The notes under the pieces: model-generated
Database searches by the model: none
Seen by the model: only the letters and a program-made list of their open reading frames with translations
Told to the model about the DNA's origin: nothing
Shown: piece by piece, positions 6,550-19,055 of the stretch
Numbering within the stretch: position 1 is the stretch's first letter
Layout: each line of letters starts with the position of its first letter
Position numbers and translations under genes: made by a program
NCBI GenBank assembly: GCA_964540445.1
Contig: CAZIMF010000006.1
Span: 1 to 24,000 of the forward strand
DNA: 24,000 nucleotides
Source of the DNA: an uncultured Candidatus Saccharibacteria bacterium
GTDB lineage: Bacteria > Patescibacteriota > Saccharimonadia > Saccharimonadales > 2-12-FULL-41-12
Direction: 5' to 3'

Positions 6550-6637
6550 TGGCGGAGGGAGAGGGATTCGAACCCTCGAGGACTTGCGCCCAACACGCTT
6601 TCCAAGCGTGCGCCATAGGCCACTAGGCGACCCCTCC
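6550..6637 (-). tRNA. tRNA-Ser(GGA), 88 nt with encoded CCA
   Basis: The reverse complement reads GGAGGGGTCGCCTAGTGGCCTATGGCGCACGCTTGGAAAGCGTGTTGGGCGCAAGTCCTCGAGGGTTCGAATCCCTCTCCCTCCGCCA. It has a 7-bp acceptor stem, anticodon loop TTGGAAA, a long variable arm, and a GGTTCGAATCC T-loop. Confidence 0.9.
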
Positions 6638-6663: not shown

Positions 6664-6716
6664 TACTATACCTCCGCTTCATTAAATTTTAATAAAACGG
6701 AGGTATAGTACCTTTT
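6664..6716 (+). terminator. Long hairpin followed by a T-run; possible pyrH terminator
   Basis: Perfect 13-bp stem TACTATACCTCCG (6664-6676) / CGGAGGTATAGTA (6698-6710) with a 21-nt AT-rich loop, then CCTTTT. The large loop is atypical for an intrinsic terminator. Confidence 0.3.
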
Positions 6717-13631: not shown

Positions 13632-15470
13632 GTGCTGTCTGCTATCCTAAACTGGAAGAGCACTAATAATTTGGTACGAATGAACATATCCGCCCTATAT
13701 AAACGCTATGCCCAGGCTATTCCGGGCATTAAAAGCTATGTATTAGCCAGTATATTTTTATTTATACTGGGAATAGTTATTACTACGTTGGCTTGGTATG
13801 TTGAACGACAGCGGGTTGATGCGCAAAAAAATCGGCAATTAACAGAACAAGCTTTCTCGCTTGAATCGAGCATTACCAATCGTCTTGACGCCTATGCTCA
13901 GATACTACGCGGTGCAAGTGGGCTGTTTAGCGCTTCAGACTTAGTAACAAAAGATGACTGGCGGCGCTACATCCAGGAATATAATCTATCAACTACGTAT
14001 CCGGGAATAAATTCGGTTACCTACATTCAGGTTGTCCCTGCAGCTTTACTGCCTGGCTTTATAGAGAGCGGACGAGCGCAAATTACACCCACCTTCATCG
14101 TGTACCCCGAGGGCTCGCGTGATGTGTATGCGCCAGTGACATATGTTGAGCCGCTAAATAAAGCAACTGAGTCAACGCTTGGCTTCGATATCTTGACTGA
14201 TCCGTCACGCTCTAAGCTTGCTGGAAAAGTACGAGATTCGGGTGCGGTAGGTGTTTCTGAAAAACTTACCCTCTTGAGTGATCGTGGAACGGCCAACGAC
14301 TCAAGCTTTAATATGTATACTGCGCTTTATAAAAAAGATACAAAACCACGAACCGTTGATGAACGGCGGCAAAACCTTGCTGGCTACATTGTGGCGGCTT
14401 CTCGCGCTCAAGATTTTTTTGATCAAGTTATCGATAAATCAACTTTTACGGCCTACACCGATGTGCAGGTTTTTGATGGAACAACCACCGACCCCGGTGC
14501 GCTTCTTTATCGTTCCGAAAATTTTAAAAATCTAGATCAAAATCATCTGAGCCAAACGTTTATTTCAAAAGTATTTGATCGCACTTGGACATTCCAGTTC
14601 GCAGGGCCAATCAATAATAATAGCGAAGACAGCCAGCGCGCTACAATGATATTAATTGGTGGGGCAACCATTAGCGTTGCTATTGCCGGATTTTTATTTC
14701 TCATAATGTTAACTCGTGCCCGTGCCATCGTATATAGCAAGCAGTACGAGACTCAGCAAGCAAAAGATGACTTATTGTCGCTGGCTTCACACCAACTTCG
14801 AACACCAGCCACAGCCGTTAAACAGTACCTGGGGATGATACTCGAAGGCTACACCGGTAAAGTAGATAAAAAGCAACTACCTGCTCTTCAAAAGGCCTAT
14901 GCTAGCAATGAACGCCAACTCGATACTATTAACCAAATCCTATATGTTGCAAAAGCCGATGCCGGTCGTTTAAGCATTAGTCGCCATTTATTTGACTTGA
15001 ATATGTTAGTTGACGACATTGTTCTTGATTTAAGCGATACGCTTGAAGAAAACGATCAATCCATTGTGTTTGAACGATCTCGCAGAAAGATAAAAGTTAA
15101 TGCTGACGAGTCAAGTATTCGTATGGTTGTCGAAAATCTTATTTCGAATGCCGGTAAATATAGCTACGAAGGCGGTCAAATAGTGGTAAAAACTGGCATT
15201 CGAGGCGAAGAAGTATTTGTATCGGTAACCGACCGTGGGGTTGGTATCGCTCCAGAAGATTTTGACAAACTATTTAAGAAATTCTCGCGAATTGATAATG
15301 ATCTTTCCCTGCAAGTTGGCGGTAGTGGCATTGGGCTGTACGTTGATAAAATGCTTATTGCGCTGCACGGCGGGAGGATTGATGTTATTAGTGAACCGGG
15401 TGTCGGCTCAACATTTACAATCTACCTCCCTAGGAATGGAGCGAATAATCATACAGTGAAAGGCAAGTGA
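13632..15470 (+). CDS. Sensor histidine kinase with an extracytoplasmic CHASE-like domain
   Basis: Two TM segments flank a domain of about 280 aa with a CHASE-like pattern (VYAPVTYVEPLNKATESTLGFDILTDPSRS..VRDSG). H-box SHQLRTPATAVKQYL. HATPase_c N/G boxes (NLISNAGKY, DRGVGI, GGSGIGL). Start is GTG 13632 or ATG 13680. Confidence 0.85.
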   Translation: MLSAILNWKSTNNLVRMNISALYKRYAQAIPGIKSYVLASIFLFILGIVITTLAWYVERQRVDAQKNRQLTEQAFSLESSITNRLDAYAQILRGASGLFSASDLVTKDDWRRYIQEYNLSTTYPGINSVTYIQVVPAALLPGFIESGRAQITPTFIVYPEGSRDVYAPVTYVEPLNKATESTLGFDILTDPSRSKLAGKVRDSGAVGVSEKLTLLSDRGTANDSSFNMYTALYKKDTKPRTVDERRQNLAGYIVAASRAQDFFDQVIDKSTFTAYTDVQVFDGTTTDPGALLYRSENFKNLDQNHLSQTFISKVFDRTWTFQFAGPINNNSEDSQRATMILIGGATISVAIAGFLFLIMLTRARAIVYSKQYETQQAKDDLLSLASHQLRTPATAVKQYLGMILEGYTGKVDKKQLPALQKAYASNERQLDTINQILYVAKADAGRLSISRHLFDLNMLVDDIVLDLSDTLEENDQSIVFERSRRKIKVNADESSIRMVVENLISNAGKYSYEGGQIVVKTGIRGEEVFVSVTDRGVGIAPEDFDKLFKKFSRIDNDLSLQVGGSGIGLYVDKMLIALHGGRIDVISEPGVGSTFTIYLPRNGANNHTVKGK

Positions 15471-15540
15471 ATGCTGTATTATAAATTAATTGACAATAGT
15501 TAAGTTAATAGAGAAACTACTTTAGAGGACATATACCCTG

Positions 15541-15924
15541 ATGAATAAACCCCAAAAAGCCCAAGTACTAATTGTTGAAGACGAAGTATTACTGAATGAA
15601 GCATACGAAACAGTATTAACTCACGAAGGCTACCAAGTTTTCAAAGCCTTTAACGGCGAAGAAGCTTTAGAGATTCTAAAGAAACATACACCAGACTTAA
15701 TTCTACTTGACCTTCGAATGCCCAAAATGGATGGCCTTACTTTCCTTGCAGAACTTCAGAAAAAAGATCATCCTAATTACAAGATTATTGTCTTTAGTAA
15801 TTACGACGTTCAAAAAGACATCGACAGTTCGTTTGATCTGGGCGCAACTCATTACGTGCTCAAAGCCTACGCATCCCCCAAAGAGCTGGTACGCATAGTC
15901 CGAAACAGCCTTATCGACGAATAA
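15541..15924 (+). CDS. Single-domain (CheY-like, receiver-only) response regulator
   Basis: 127 aa. VEDE acidic pocket, phospho-acceptor context LILLDLRMPKMDG, and a conserved Lys in YVLKA. No output domain. Confidence 0.88.
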   Translation: MNKPQKAQVLIVEDEVLLNEAYETVLTHEGYQVFKAFNGEEALEILKKHTPDLILLDLRMPKMDGLTFLAELQKKDHPNYKIIVFSNYDVQKDIDSSFDLGATHYVLKAYASPKELVRIVRNSLIDE

Positions 15925-16019
15925 AGATCGTCCAATTTACATTTAGTGACACAGAAACCGCCTACCGAGCGGTTTCTTGTTGCAGATAGCAAAGTCACTA
16001 AATGTAAGTTGGACGATCT
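15925..16019. repeat. Nested-hairpin element, copy A (three-helix structure)
   Basis: Outer 26-bp stem 15925-15950 / 15994-16019, with one T-G wobble when read as + strand RNA. Inner hairpin AGAAACCGC-CTACCGA-GCGGTTTCT (15953-15977). Second small hairpin TTGC-AGATA-GCAA (15980-15992). The element starts 1 nt after the response-regulator stop and overlaps the DUF1653 stop codon. Confidence 0.75.
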
Positions 16020-16287
16020 ACCGGCCAAGCAGAGTAAACCGATTAACTGTTTGGTCTTTGTATTTAATCGTACTTTGCCAGATATGTAGTGGTCTAACGA
16101 ACGTTAACTTGCTCCCATATTGAGCCTGATATACTACGCTAACTCCGTTATCAGCTTCGTTAATTACTAGGTTAATCACTCGGTATGTTTGGCCAGGATT
16201 TTTATAGTGAGAATATAGTTCACCTACCATAACGTGCCGTGCTGCATCATCCAATTTACCTTTAAGAATATTCTCTGATTGGTGCAT
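16018..16287 (-). CDS. DUF1653-family small protein
   Basis: 89 aa. The pattern YSHYKNPGQTYRVINLV..E....VVYQAQYG....FVRPL..W...........RF resembles the DUF1653 family consensus. Confidence 0.65.
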   Translation of the reverse strand: MHQSENILKGKLDDAARHVMVGELYSHYKNPGQTYRVINLVINEADNGVSVVYQAQYGSKLTFVRPLHIWQSTIKYKDQTVNRFTLLGR

Positions 16288-16293
16288 ATCGCT

Positions 16294-16302
16294 ATTGTAC
16301 CA
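16294..16302 (-). promoter_or_regulatory. Extended -10 box placed for a leaderless DUF1653 mRNA
   Basis: On the - strand: TGgTACAAT, 6 nt (AGCGAT), ATG (16287). No SD. Confidence 0.5.
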
Positions 16303-16326
16303 ACTACTGAATCTTAACGAGGTAAG

Positions 16327-16417
16327 TTTTTGTACTTTAAATAGATAGACACAGAAATTGTCTACCGAACAATTTCTTGCGCAATCTAAGCGAGTCTATC
16401 TATTTAAAGTACAAAAA
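16327..16417. repeat. Nested-hairpin element, copy B (same architecture as copy A)
   Basis: Perfect 24-bp outer stem 16327-16350 / 16394-16417. Inner hairpin AGAAATTGT-CTACCGA-ACAATTTCT (16353-16377). Second small hairpin CGC-AATCTAA-GCG (16380-16392). It ends 1 nt before the crp-family stop codon. Confidence 0.75.
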
Positions 16418-17092
16418 TTAGTATTTGAAGCTGAGGAATTCTTCAGAGCTTAGAAGTGAGCGCAACTGCTGGATATTTAATGAATAGTTTTGGTTAGCGT
16501 ATTCGACAATTCCCTTGCGGCGTAACTTATTAAGCTCTGTTGAGGTTGTTTCTCGGGTAAGCCCGGTCATATTGGCGAGATCTTGGTGGGTGATGCGTAG
16601 ATCGATCCGCTCCCAACCATCATTTGGATTTTTAAGGCTCGGGAAGCGCATGAGTAAGTACTGCAGCATATGAATAATCTTTTCGTTACCTTTTGATTGC
16701 TCAAGGGCATTTATTTCTAGCAGTGATCCTACGAAGGAAGAGGCATAGTGCTCGAACATGAAGTTTGTAATGCTGGGTGTGGTTTTGATTGCTTCAAGTA
16801 GTTCTTCTCGGGGTATACGATGAAAACTGCAGGGTGTAAATGCATCATAATAATAAAGACTTACCGGTGACTTTTTGAAAACCCAAGCCGGAGGCAATAA
16901 GTCTCCTATTGACATGAAGTTTATAATTTTTTCATCGCCGGCTCCACCAATATCATAAATTTTGACAATTCCCTCAGTTAGAATATATGCATGACGTGGT
17001 ACTTCACCTTGATAAAATATCGGTTCACCGGCATCTCGTTTTTGGACCGGGTGTTGTTTGCAGATAGTAAGTAATTCGTCGGGAATACGCAT
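16418..17092 (-). CDS. Crp/Fnr-family transcriptional regulator
   Basis: 224 aa. N-terminal cNMP-binding-like beta-roll (IFYQGEVPRHAYILTEGIVKIY). C-terminal HTH ITHQDLANMTGLTRETTSTELNKLRRKGIV. Confidence 0.85.
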   Translation of the reverse strand: MRIPDELLTICKQHPVQKRDAGEPIFYQGEVPRHAYILTEGIVKIYDIGGAGDEKIINFMSIGDLLPPAWVFKKSPVSLYYYDAFTPCSFHRIPREELLEAIKTTPSITNFMFEHYASSFVGSLLEINALEQSKGNEKIIHMLQYLLMRFPSLKNPNDGWERIDLRITHQDLANMTGLTRETTSTELNKLRRKGIVEYANQNYSLNIQQLRSLLSSEEFLSFKY

Positions 17093-17098
17093 GTAGAT

Positions 17099-17104
17099 TA
17101 TTCT
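17099..17104 (-). promoter_or_regulatory. Weak -10-like box 6 nt upstream of the crp-family ATG
   Basis: On the - strand: CAGAAT, 6 nt (AATCTA), ATG (17092). There is no SD within normal spacing. Confidence 0.25.
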
Positions 17105-17225
17105 GGTCTCCAGTTTACCCTTGCCTAAGTTTCAACGTAGCACGAAAATACTCGCGTCGTTCTACTTACTAGACTACCATGTTCTGGCTTATTTTTGTGA
17201 CCGGCTGTATTTTTTACACTGCGAG

Positions 17226-17420
17226 TTAGTCATCTAATGTATCTTTATTAGTTATCTCTGTTATTTCGTCGTTGTCCTCTGTATTTCGGCTAATCCAGGT
17301 GCTATCCCTGCTCTGCATATAGAGTGAGTGACGATACATAGACTTATCTACGTTGTTTGCTTTGGCGCTGTTACGTTTGCCTCCAAGTTGTATCCGAAAA
17401 TATTTAAAATTCTTAACCAT
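17226..17420 (-). CDS. Hypothetical small protein (64 aa) with a basic N-terminus and an acidic C-terminus
   Basis: ORF only. Weak SD AAAGG 6 nt upstream. No family recognised. A + strand terminator immediately upstream makes the coding status uncertain. Confidence 0.3.
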   Translation of the reverse strand: MVKNFKYFRIQLGGKRNSAKANNVDKSMYRHSLYMQSRDSTWISRNTEDNDEITEITNKDTLDD

Positions 17421-18020: not shown

Positions 18021-19055
18021 CTAGTTTTGAACGTTGAATGAGGTGTTTGAATTCGCACCATTTGCTGCACTGCCCGTACCTGCACCACCAGCAGATGTAT
18101 TGTTAGCAGTAGTCGCAGATCCGCTGCTCGCAGTTTGGTTATTGATGTTGGTTGCGCTTAGGTTGTTCGTGTTAGTTACGTTTACATTACGAGTATTAGT
18201 ATTTGAAATCACATTGTTAGAGTTGGGTCCGGTTGTGTTGATTGAGGAGTTAGAGCCTCCACCAGCACCTGCACCGCCGCCACCGGCTCCACCAGCACCG
18301 CCAAATCCGCCGCTGTTGTTAAGCACGCCATTAACGCCGTTGCTGGAATTATTGCCCGCGTTGCCGCTGCCAGCGCCTCCTCCGAAGGTATTATTGCCAC
18401 TAAAGGCTCCTCCACTACCGGCTAGTTGGCCATTCACATTCAGTAATCCAATATTGTTAAGGTTTGCTTGATTAGCAGAAGAGCTGTTAGCGTTGGTAAT
18501 GGCATTGTTTGAACCAGGACCAGTATTGCCAATTGTGCTATTAGAGCCTCCGGCACCACCTAAGCAGGCTGCAGCTGCACTCCCTGCACCACCATTATTT
18601 ACATTGAAGCTCATATTGTTTGAGCTGTTATTGAAAGCGTTGCCGGTTGTAGCTCCGCCACCACCTGCTGCTACTGAGCCCCAAGCACCTTGTAGACCAG
18701 CTATGTAAGCATTAACAGCTGCTTGCCACTGAGCATATGTGTAGCCTTGGGCTTGCCATACTGCAGGGTCGTACGCTCCCCAGCCACCTCCAATTCCGCC
18801 GGCATTTGTATTATTTGCCACAGTGGCATTACCACTTATGGCTGATTGGTTATTCATATTTGTTGCATTAATTAAGTTAGTATTGCCCACCATACAATTT
18901 GAAGTGTCTGTATTTGTTATTACGTTGTTTGAACCCGGGCCTGTCGTTGCGATAGTTGCAACCTGAGCTGATGCCACGCTTGCGAACCCAAAAAAAGCAG
19001 TCAATAATGCTGCAATTGCCAGATTAAAGCCGCGTGAAATATGCGCTTTTGTCAT
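18021..19055 (-). CDS. Secreted Asn/Gly/Thr/Ala-rich repeat protein with three 'TGPGSNNxI(T/S)NT' units
   Basis: 344 aa. Signal peptide ..AALLTAFFGFASVASA-Q. Strong SD GGAGGAG. Three repeat units of roughly 50-70 aa (about residues 35-86, 176-240 and 272-344) are separated by poly-Gly/Ala linkers and a Trp/Tyr/Gln-rich segment (GGWGAYDPAVWQAQGYTYAQWQAAVNAYIAGLQGAWG). No sortase or lipobox signal. Confidence 0.85.
   Translation of the reverse strand: MTKAHISRGFNLAIAALLTAFFGFASVASAQVATIATTGPGSNNVITNTDTSNCMVGNTNLINATNMNNQSAISGNATVANNTNAGGIGGGWGAYDPAVWQAQGYTYAQWQAAVNAYIAGLQGAWGSVAAGGGGATTGNAFNNSSNNMSFNVNNGGAGSAAAACLGGAGGSNSTIGNTGPGSNNAITNANSSSANQANLNNIGLLNVNGQLAGSGGAFSGNNTFGGGAGSGNAGNNSSNGVNGVLNNSGGFGGAGGAGGGGAGAGGGSNSSINTTGPNSNNVISNTNTRNVNVTNTNNLSATNINNQTASSGSATTANNTSAGGAGTGSAANGANSNTSFNVQN

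Follow-up and report, generated by a model that had tools for sequence, protein, structure and literature searches.

Two nested-hairpin elements lie at a convergent gene junction

The window analysed here, comprising the first 24,000 nt of contig CAZIMF010000006.1 from an uncultured Candidatus Saccharibacteria bacterium, contains a convergent junction at which a CHASE histidine kinase gene (13632–15470) and the gene for a stand-alone receiver-domain response regulator (RR; 15541–15924, plus strand; Pfam Response_reg, 4.2e-28) face the gene for a Crp/Fnr-family regulator (crp; 16418–17092, minus strand; Pfam cNMP_binding and HTH_Crp_2). Between them lie a small gene for an 89-aa DUF1653 protein (16018–16287, minus strand; Pfam PF07866, E 2.2e-13) and two three-armed hairpin elements, A and B, which are the subject of this work. 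The identities given to the RR, DUF1653 and crp genes in an initial annotation, made from the sequence alone, were confirmed by Pfam. Coordinates are window positions unless a related locus is named.

Elements A (95 nt, 15925–16019) and B (91 nt, 16327–16417), both in the plus (canonical) orientation, share the single architecture proposed for them, and direct reading of the sequence together with a listing of inverted repeats placed every feature where it had been described. The outer stem of A is formed by two arms of 26 nt (15925–15950 and 15994–16019) that are 96% complementary, with one T.G pair, and that of B by two arms of 24 nt (16327–16350 and 16394–16417) that are 100% complementary. 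The arms are separated by exactly 43 nt in both elements, and this core (15951–15993 in A and 16351–16393 in B, plus strand) consists of AC, hairpin 1, TG, hairpin 2 and A, as deduced from sequence, fold and RNAalifold. Hairpin 1 has a stem of 9 bp, AGAAACCGC/GCGGTTTCT in A (15953–15961/15969–15977) and AGAAATTGT/ACAATTTCT in B (16353–16377), closed in each case by the loop CTACCGA (15962–15968 and 16362–16368); as originally described, three C-G to T-A double changes separate the two stems. Hairpin 2, with a stem of 3–4 bp, reads TTGC-AGATA-GCAA in A (15980–15992) and CGC-AATCTAA-GCG in B (16380–16392). The junction bases GAC-AC-AGAAA...TTTCT-TG...A-GTC are common to A and B, whose cores are closed by GAC...GTC.

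The placement of the elements is as exact as had been claimed. Element A starts immediately after the RR stop codon (15922–15924), and the last two bases of its right arm are part of the DUF1653 stop codon (16018–16020); B ends at 16417, directly before the crp stop codon (16418–16420). The elements thus lie 0–2 nt from three stop codons, and the same proximity is found in three of the related loci described below (L053, L054 and L066).

These features are not due to chance, as indicated by shuffle controls, by the rarity of comparable inverted repeats and by folding z-scores. None of 100 shuffles contained the core pattern, of which the window has two occurrences, and the 24 kb include just four inverted repeats that are both long and closely spaced. 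Folding z-scores were -12.9 for A and -9.1 for B. The range was -9 to -13 for RNA and -10.6 to -14.9 for DNA, and none of 200 shuffles was as stable; the fold is equally stable on either strand. A match of 17 out of 19 positions between an arm of A and the DUF1653 coding region fell within the range of shuffled arms and was discarded as chance.

Copies of the element in related genomes

We compared this locus, i.e. the convergent junction of the CHASE kinase and RR genes with crp on the opposite strand, among Candidatus Saccharimonadales relatives. Five more copies of the element were found at the same RR/crp junction in four related genomes, which brings the family to seven copies of 91–111 nt in five genomes, every one of them at this junction. 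Locus L053, on a 1.19-Mb contig, contains two elements around an unrelated gene for a 205-aa protein (plus strand), one after the RR stop codon and the other between the stop codons of this cargo gene and of crp; from the stop-codon placement in L053 and in the window, we deduce that there is one element per gene end at the junction. L054, L055 and L066 contain a single element and no extra gene. Elements are absent from L064 and L065, where the stop codons are 9 and 3 bp apart, respectively, and from L067–L075, with called genes 2–3 bp apart, and in L076 an unrelated 76-nt spacer takes their place. Element-bearing and element-free genomes are interleaved on a rough tree of RR and Crp, which indicates several clean losses of the element.

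Three of these loci show local peculiarities. In L054 (10380–10490), the palindrome has arms of 34 bp that take in both stop codons (AGTAG...CTACT), and Crp (225 aa) ends in FKLQ* instead of FKY*, as if the arm had extended into the end of the gene. In L055, the element adjoins crp and not the regulator gene, and a 67-nt spacer (1556–1622) separates it from the RR stop codon; we dropped the idea that this spacer is an element remnant, because it showed no significant similarity to the compared sequences. The spacer of L076 (879–954) is AT-rich, Crp is extended to 231 aa, and the spacer contains an inverted repeat, CATTTCA...TGAAATG, that recalls the stem of hairpin 1 but went undetected by our covariance model (see below).

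Two subtypes of the copies are distinguished by the core half that contains hairpin 2, alpha (A, the first element of L053 and that of L055) and beta (B, the second element of L053 and that of L054). In this part, identity is 10–13 of 14 positions within alpha and 9–12 within beta, versus 3–7 between the groups. Element A is identical to the other alpha copies at 11–13 of 14 positions, and B to the other beta copies at 9–11 and to the alpha copies at 3–4. At both two-element loci alpha adjoins the RR gene and beta adjoins crp, and this shared order indicates that the alpha/beta pair is older than the split between the window and L053. The gene between them differs, being DUF1653 (minus strand) in the window and the 205-aa gene (plus strand) in L053, so that the early suggestion of cassette boundaries around DUF1653 gains some support.

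The alpha core is in plus orientation in all three copies, and the beta core is plus in the window and minus in L053 and L054; the two-element loci therefore read + + in the window and + - in L053. In both of them (n = 2), the element at the 3' end of the cargo gene is antisense to that gene. We consider these orientation calls safe, because the opposite strand of a true copy scores only 16–20 bits with the covariance model. The hairpin 1 loop is CTACCGA in both window copies, CTAACGA in L055, the closest relative, and in both L053 copies, AAAATTA in L054 and GTA in L066. A short conversion tract is an unlikely source of the loop change shared by A and B, since the stem bases next to the loop differ between them; a parallel change, or both copies tracking a common trans-acting partner, is suggested by this pattern, although it is suggestive only.

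Covariation and selection

The covariation alignment comprised the six alignable copies and 24 modelled pairs. Seventeen of these pairs had changed on both sides and 97.9% of the cells were paired, a level reached by 0 of 500 shuffles, and slid controls were only 33–44% paired. All three helices were supported by covariation, and RNAalifold independently recovered the same three-way junction. The outer stems are kept in the orthologous copies as well, each with 24–34 bp and with unrelated sequences. Over the whole length of the arms and in the two hairpins there are 233 pairs, of which 229 are Watson-Crick, one is G.T, two are A.C and one is of another kind; there were no one-sided pair changes. 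The lower 5 bp of hairpin 1 (AGAAA/TTTCT) retain their sequence, and the upper 4 bp covary. The length of the core is constant at 43 nt (40 nt in L066), and 13 nt invariably separate hairpin 1 from the closing AGTC.

We used the flanking genes, which are 70–81% identical at the DNA level and whose four-fold degenerate sites are saturated (26–41% identity), as a reference for these changes. The distal 18 bp of the arms are identical at 3–10 of 18 positions (ca. 36%), the same as the saturated four-fold sites; we thus rejected the idea of hypervariable arms in favour of plain drift. The six junction-proximal stem pairs match at 4–6 of 6 positions and the cores are 60–81% identical between copies, like coding DNA. 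Because the cores retain this identity while four-fold sites and distal arms are saturated, sequence comparison indicates that the 43-nt core and ca. 6 bp of the adjoining stem are under purifying selection. Selection likewise appears to maintain a helix of 24 bp or more, though not its sequence. The distal 18–28 bp of each arm have drifted to saturation, yet they are Watson-Crick perfect.

The initial annotation took the covariation as the signature of a selected RNA or single-stranded DNA fold. None of the three outcomes named there as refuting was observed: further copies exist, the pairs covary and the outer stems are kept at orthologous loci. The fold is real, conserved and covarying, but covariation alone does not prove a selected RNA fold, because a pattern almost restricted to Watson-Crick pairs is also the product of DNA-level template switching between the arms of a palindrome. 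A constraint acting only on RNA normally leaves many G-U pairs. Template switching in quasipalindromes, in turn, creates and repairs perfect stems, homogenises their arms and inverts spacers (PMC8794818, PMC5941160), a behaviour described also in PMC8604942, and the elements resemble its products in that their arms are perfect and may be extended, compensatory changes affect several bases at once and lack G-U intermediates, and spacers may be inverted. We conclude that the covariation of the elements partly reflects a DNA-level mechanism. Nevertheless, template switching is a mutational mechanism and not a function: it accounts for the perfect arms, and it does not explain the conservation of the 43-nt core or the retention of arms of at least 24 bp in a streamlined genome.

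The family seems restricted to a single locus

A covariance model (R1) built from six copies, which themselves scored 79–89 bits, matched A at 15939–16005 (87.5 bits, versus 18 bits on the minus strand) and B at 16339–16405 (83.8 bits, versus 20), both on the plus strand. The L066 copy, although diverged, was likewise detected by R1 unaided (36 bits, E 8e-7), and the best score in 447 kb of unrelated control loci was 20 bits. Outside the RR/crp junction, R1 retrieved no copy from ca. 133 kb of Saccharimonadales DNA, even with filters off. Likewise, the pattern AGAAA-N4-CTACCGA-N4-TTTCT had 51 matches in 185,579 species genomes and one in IMG/VR, none with a complementary stem, which we attribute to chance, and GACMCRGAAA-N15-TTYCYTS-N13-AGTC had seven in 241 M metagenome records and one in IMG/VR, none with outer stems; these scans were exact, so that diverged copies would escape them, and the first pattern used the window-specific loop. 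The proposal of a miniature repeat family was thus not borne out in the sense of dispersed copies, there being no copy away from the junction in the related DNA or in the public collections.

In agreement with the earlier failure to recognise a named family, no Rfam 15 model reached its gathering threshold for the elements, and only a tRNA (6553–6637) did so in the window; at E ≤ 10, the elements matched only sub-threshold models of microRNA precursors, which fit any long hairpin. A blastn search with the whole 493-nt segment found nothing among PLSDB plasmids or INPHARED phages. The arms had no exact match in IMG/VR and, considered as guides or spacers copied from elsewhere, resembled no sequence within 20 kb of an element more closely than shuffled controls did. 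Likewise, our search for literature on attC sites or inverted repeats in Saccharibacteria found nothing relevant. Together, our results indicate that this three-armed hairpin element is real, selected and undescribed, and the family seems confined to one locus in one clade of Candidatus Saccharimonadales.

Cargo genes and neighbouring genes

The DUF1653 gene is not present at this position in the eight other orthologous junction types examined, and the only match of its product in a word search of 5.8 billion proteins was itself, no close homologue being on record. Neither this protein nor the 205-aa product of L053 matches PHROG, PADLOC or NCBIfam. Direct reading of the sequence revealed a putative extended -10 promoter of DUF1653, TGGTACAAT (16294–16302, minus strand), six nt before the ATG (in the stretch 16288–16302), which was missed by a consensus scan for two hexamers. 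Such closeness to the ATG suggests a possible leaderless DUF1653 mRNA starting just past element B.

We also considered that the cargo might travel with the element, and rejected it because homologues of the 205-aa protein (38–43% identity) occur in two other contexts without elements. Two paralogues of this protein, of 212 and 206 aa, are found in L078 (1–8359) beside genes for AIPR (abortive infection), a DNA methylase and DUF2779, which is a defence-island-like context for this cargo family. On the other side of crp, the window contains a gene for a 344-aa low-complexity protein rich in Asn, Gly, Ser and Thr (18021–19055, minus strand), with no Pfam match. A gene for a protein of 344 aa lies at the same relative place in L066 and none in L053, so that this may be a further variable gene near crp.

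A possible role at transcript 3' boundaries

We tentatively favour, with a probability of roughly 40%, that the elements are selected single-strand hairpins at the 3' boundaries of transcription units, where they would serve as insulators or processing sites, with template switching keeping their arms perfect. The molecule, strand, activity and partner given in the following are inferred. The elements would act as folded single-strand hairpins, most likely in RNA, on both convergent transcripts, and each gene at the junction (RR, cargo and crp) would end in a long stable stem. This stem may block read-through and 3' exonucleases, offer RNase III a duplex of at least 24 bp, or both, and would act in both directions to insulate transcripts that are convergent or in tandem. 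The conserved core is probably recognised by a sequence-specific partner. The length of the arms would be maintained by selection for a long helix, and their perfection by template switching during replication, in which one arm serves as the template for the other. Template switching could also invert the spacer, and we propose that these two effects account for the near absence of G-U pairs and for the flipped cores.

The stems recognised by RNase III, such as those between cistrons of phage T7 or those bracketing the 16S and 23S rRNAs, are similar in that a long duplex of more than two helical turns encloses a structured insert and lies between cistrons. The near-perfect stems of 24–34 bp would provide, on either strand and only if transcribed, the ca. 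20 bp of continuous duplex that this enzyme requires. Known RNase III sites, however, usually have internal loops or antideterminants, and the strict Watson-Crick pairing seen here is atypical for a constraint acting on RNA only.

Several observations weigh against a role at transcript boundaries. The elements show neither a U-tract nor a consensus terminator. Other convergent pairs in the window abut at 0–3 bp without a hairpin (3235/3236, 9386/9388 and 20443/20447), which means that these hairpins are not the ordinary way in which genes end in this genome, and the same RR/crp junction lacks the element, with a gap of 2–9 bp, in L064, L065 and L067–L075; there is thus no sign of a general need for an insulator. 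The conserved loop and junction bases and the constant 43-nt core go unexplained by a plain terminator or stabiliser, and a perfect duplex of 24–34 bp is unusual for a helix selected purely as RNA. Finally, the presence of n+1 elements for n genes fits equally well with a model of recombination sites.

Alternative explanations

According to this last model, which we regard as unlikely but as the most serious alternative, the alpha and beta elements are structure-specific recombination sites that bound a slot for the insertion, exchange and loss of gene cassettes and are read as folded single strands by a recombinase encoded elsewhere. It would agree with the bracketing of unrelated genes (DUF1653, minus; L053 205-aa, plus) by the same two subtypes, both genes being small and of unassigned function, and with the existence of relatives with zero, one or two elements and clean empty sites; nevertheless, differential loss from an ancestor with both genes would account for the differing cargo as well. 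Likewise, the strict Watson-Crick pairing suits a DNA substrate, the conserved core implies sequence-specific recognition and the shared change of the loop from CTAACGA to CTACCGA in A and B hints at a common trans partner, but a candidate enzyme is missing from the surroundings. Pfam analysis of all large open reading frames of the window identified no recombinase, transposase, invertase or reverse transcriptase, and the gene tables of L053 and L054 list no integrase, transposase or recombinase in their flanks.

The closest parallel to this model would be the attC sites of integrons, including those in CALIN arrays without integrase. These are also palindromes of ca. 60–140 nt with imperfectly conserved sequence and conserved fold, recognised in attC as folded single strands, with one more site than genes, small cargo without assigned function, and a content of sites and cargo that varies between relatives. 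However, attC sites have RYYYAAC/GTTRRRY at their outer ends, extrahelical bases and a variable apex, whereas the elements have free ends, perfect stems and a conserved apex. A regular expression for the attC core sites (RYYYAAC-N40-130-GTTRRRY) did not match either strand of 15801–16550, the arms contain no extrahelical bases or bulges, and there are no target-site duplications. Moreover, the outer ends are not conserved, although crossover would be needed there to keep self-complementarity. Unlike in integrons, there is no integrase nearby, and DUF1653 seemingly has its own promoter; the orientations, + + in the window and + - in L053, may be a further difference. Homologues of the 205-aa protein exist elsewhere without elements, as mentioned, and the family was not seen at a second locus. 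A second parallel is given by PATE-like units derived from IS200/IS605, which, like the window, have a passenger gene between two similar hairpins of the same orientation and no terminal inverted repeats or target duplication. They differ from our case in that there is no TnpA, the hairpins lie inside long outer stems, the L053 elements are inverted, solo elements exist and no dispersed copies were found. We give a still lower probability to the bolder proposal of a new class of structure-specific recombination sites in a bacterium of the Candidate Phyla Radiation (CPR). These would be folded hairpins with a three-way junction, a conserved apex and a free stem that corrects itself; they would delimit a slot for gene cassettes in the chromosome, served by a recombinase encoded elsewhere, and allow an integron-like capture of genes without integron sequence signatures.

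It is improbable, to a greater degree, that only hairpin 1 matters, as a bidirectional intrinsic terminator made of A-tract, stem and T-tract, with the outer stem and hairpin 2 as functionless by-products of the growth of a palindrome. Bidirectional terminators and stabilising hairpins of 3' untranslated regions (UTRs) are also found at exact gene 3' ends and fold on both strands, and a conserved AGAAA/TTTCT with a covarying upper stem of 4 bp is how A- and U-tracts around a free stem are expected to look. Here, however, the free part of the stem has only 4 bp, AT-rich in B (TTGT/ACAA), with a 7-nt loop; no U-tract follows a GC-rich stem, the flanks of the outer stems are not T-rich, and a consensus scan detected no terminator-like site in 15400–17300. 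Most convergent pairs here lack a terminator altogether. Furthermore, the stem of 24–34 bp and its junction are far oversized for this role and the core is conserved; saturating divergence has left the outer stem, hairpin 2, the spacing of 43 nt and the closure by GAC/GTC in place although the genome is streamlined, which argues that they are selected.

Two further explanations appear quite improbable, and about equally so. The first is that the stem is an RNase III entry site whose cleavage releases the three-way junction, of ca. 60–70 nt, as a small RNA that acts in trans or as a decoy for a protein. A conserved core and perfect duplexes of 24 bp or more are consistent with this, as are the 7-nt loop, with a YUNR-like CUAA in three copies, and its parallel change in both window copies. 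Nevertheless, the loop is replaced in L054 (AAAATTA) and L066 (GTA), the orientation of the core relative to the flanking genes is not fixed, and the reverse complement of the loop, TCGGTAG, is absent from the 24-kb window, so that no local pairing target is visible.

The second is a selfish mobile palindrome that inserts between stop codons and has been repeatedly gained and lost, similar to miniature inverted-repeat transposable elements (MITEs) or REPINs. REP/BIME, REPIN, ERIC, Correia and other MITE sequences are indeed intergenic palindromes of ca. 100 nt, often in 3' UTRs, that may be present or absent at orthologous sites; the palindromic form of the elements, their patchy presence on the tree and the clean empty sites are in line with this. 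Those families, though, are multi-copy, with conserved arms and variable centres, whereas ours is single-locus, with a conserved centre; its arms, which under this explanation correspond to the terminal inverted repeats, have no more than ca. 6 bp of sequence in common between copies. There are no target duplications (flanking direct repeats), no transposase and no second locus in the ca. 133 kb of related DNA, and the exact core patterns had no true match in the 185,579 species genomes, 241 M metagenome records or IMG/VR. In addition, the alpha and beta lineages are orthologous between genomes, which points to vertical descent.

A miniature invertible switch, in which the 43-bp core flips between the arms and alters read-through or promoter activity, is very improbable: perfect inverted repeats flank the core and the beta core is plus in the window and minus in L053 and L054, but a rare inversion by template switching accounts equally well for such differences between species, there is no invertase nearby, no promoter is conserved in the core (a single promoter-like match in B is not kept in A), and 43 bp is very short for recombinase-mediated inversion, given the limits on DNA looping. 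The elements also differ from retron msr/msd in that there is no reverse transcriptase domain in the window and in their length of only 91–111 nt without an inner long stem. Retrons and hammerhead, twister, tRNA-like, 6S, Y RNA and ssoA structures were rejected because their defining core sequences or partner genes are absent.

A second palindrome family

We observed a second, unrelated family of palindromes, TACTATAC...TTCATTAAA / TTTAATGAA...GTATAGTA, with arms of 22–27 nt and a spacer of 1–3 nt, in which the ends and the centre are conserved and the middle covaries. It is found in the window (6664–6710), twice in L053 (1016–1062 and 3352–3406) and in L054 (3841–3887). The window copy adjoins the tRNA at 6553–6637, upstream of an ABC transporter, and the L053 pair brackets an ABC/FtsX operon.

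Implications

The elements described here are a strongly covarying, undescribed motif without an Rfam counterpart in a lineage, the Saccharibacteria and the CPR, whose non-coding repertoire is almost unknown. They also illustrate that covariation alone can mislead, as they combine double substitutions with virtually no G-U pairs and flipped cores, a combination that suggests joint action of selection and of template switching at the DNA level, and the pair of elements is a possible test case for the maintenance of long helices. If they are 3'-end insulators, they would exemplify the insulation of one particular junction in a genome with almost no intergenic space; if they are recombination sites, they would represent a new mechanism of gene capture in an ultra-small genome. 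The variable slot between the elements is an obvious region in which to search for accessory genes, and it may serve as a neutral insertion site for genetic experiments in Saccharibacteria.

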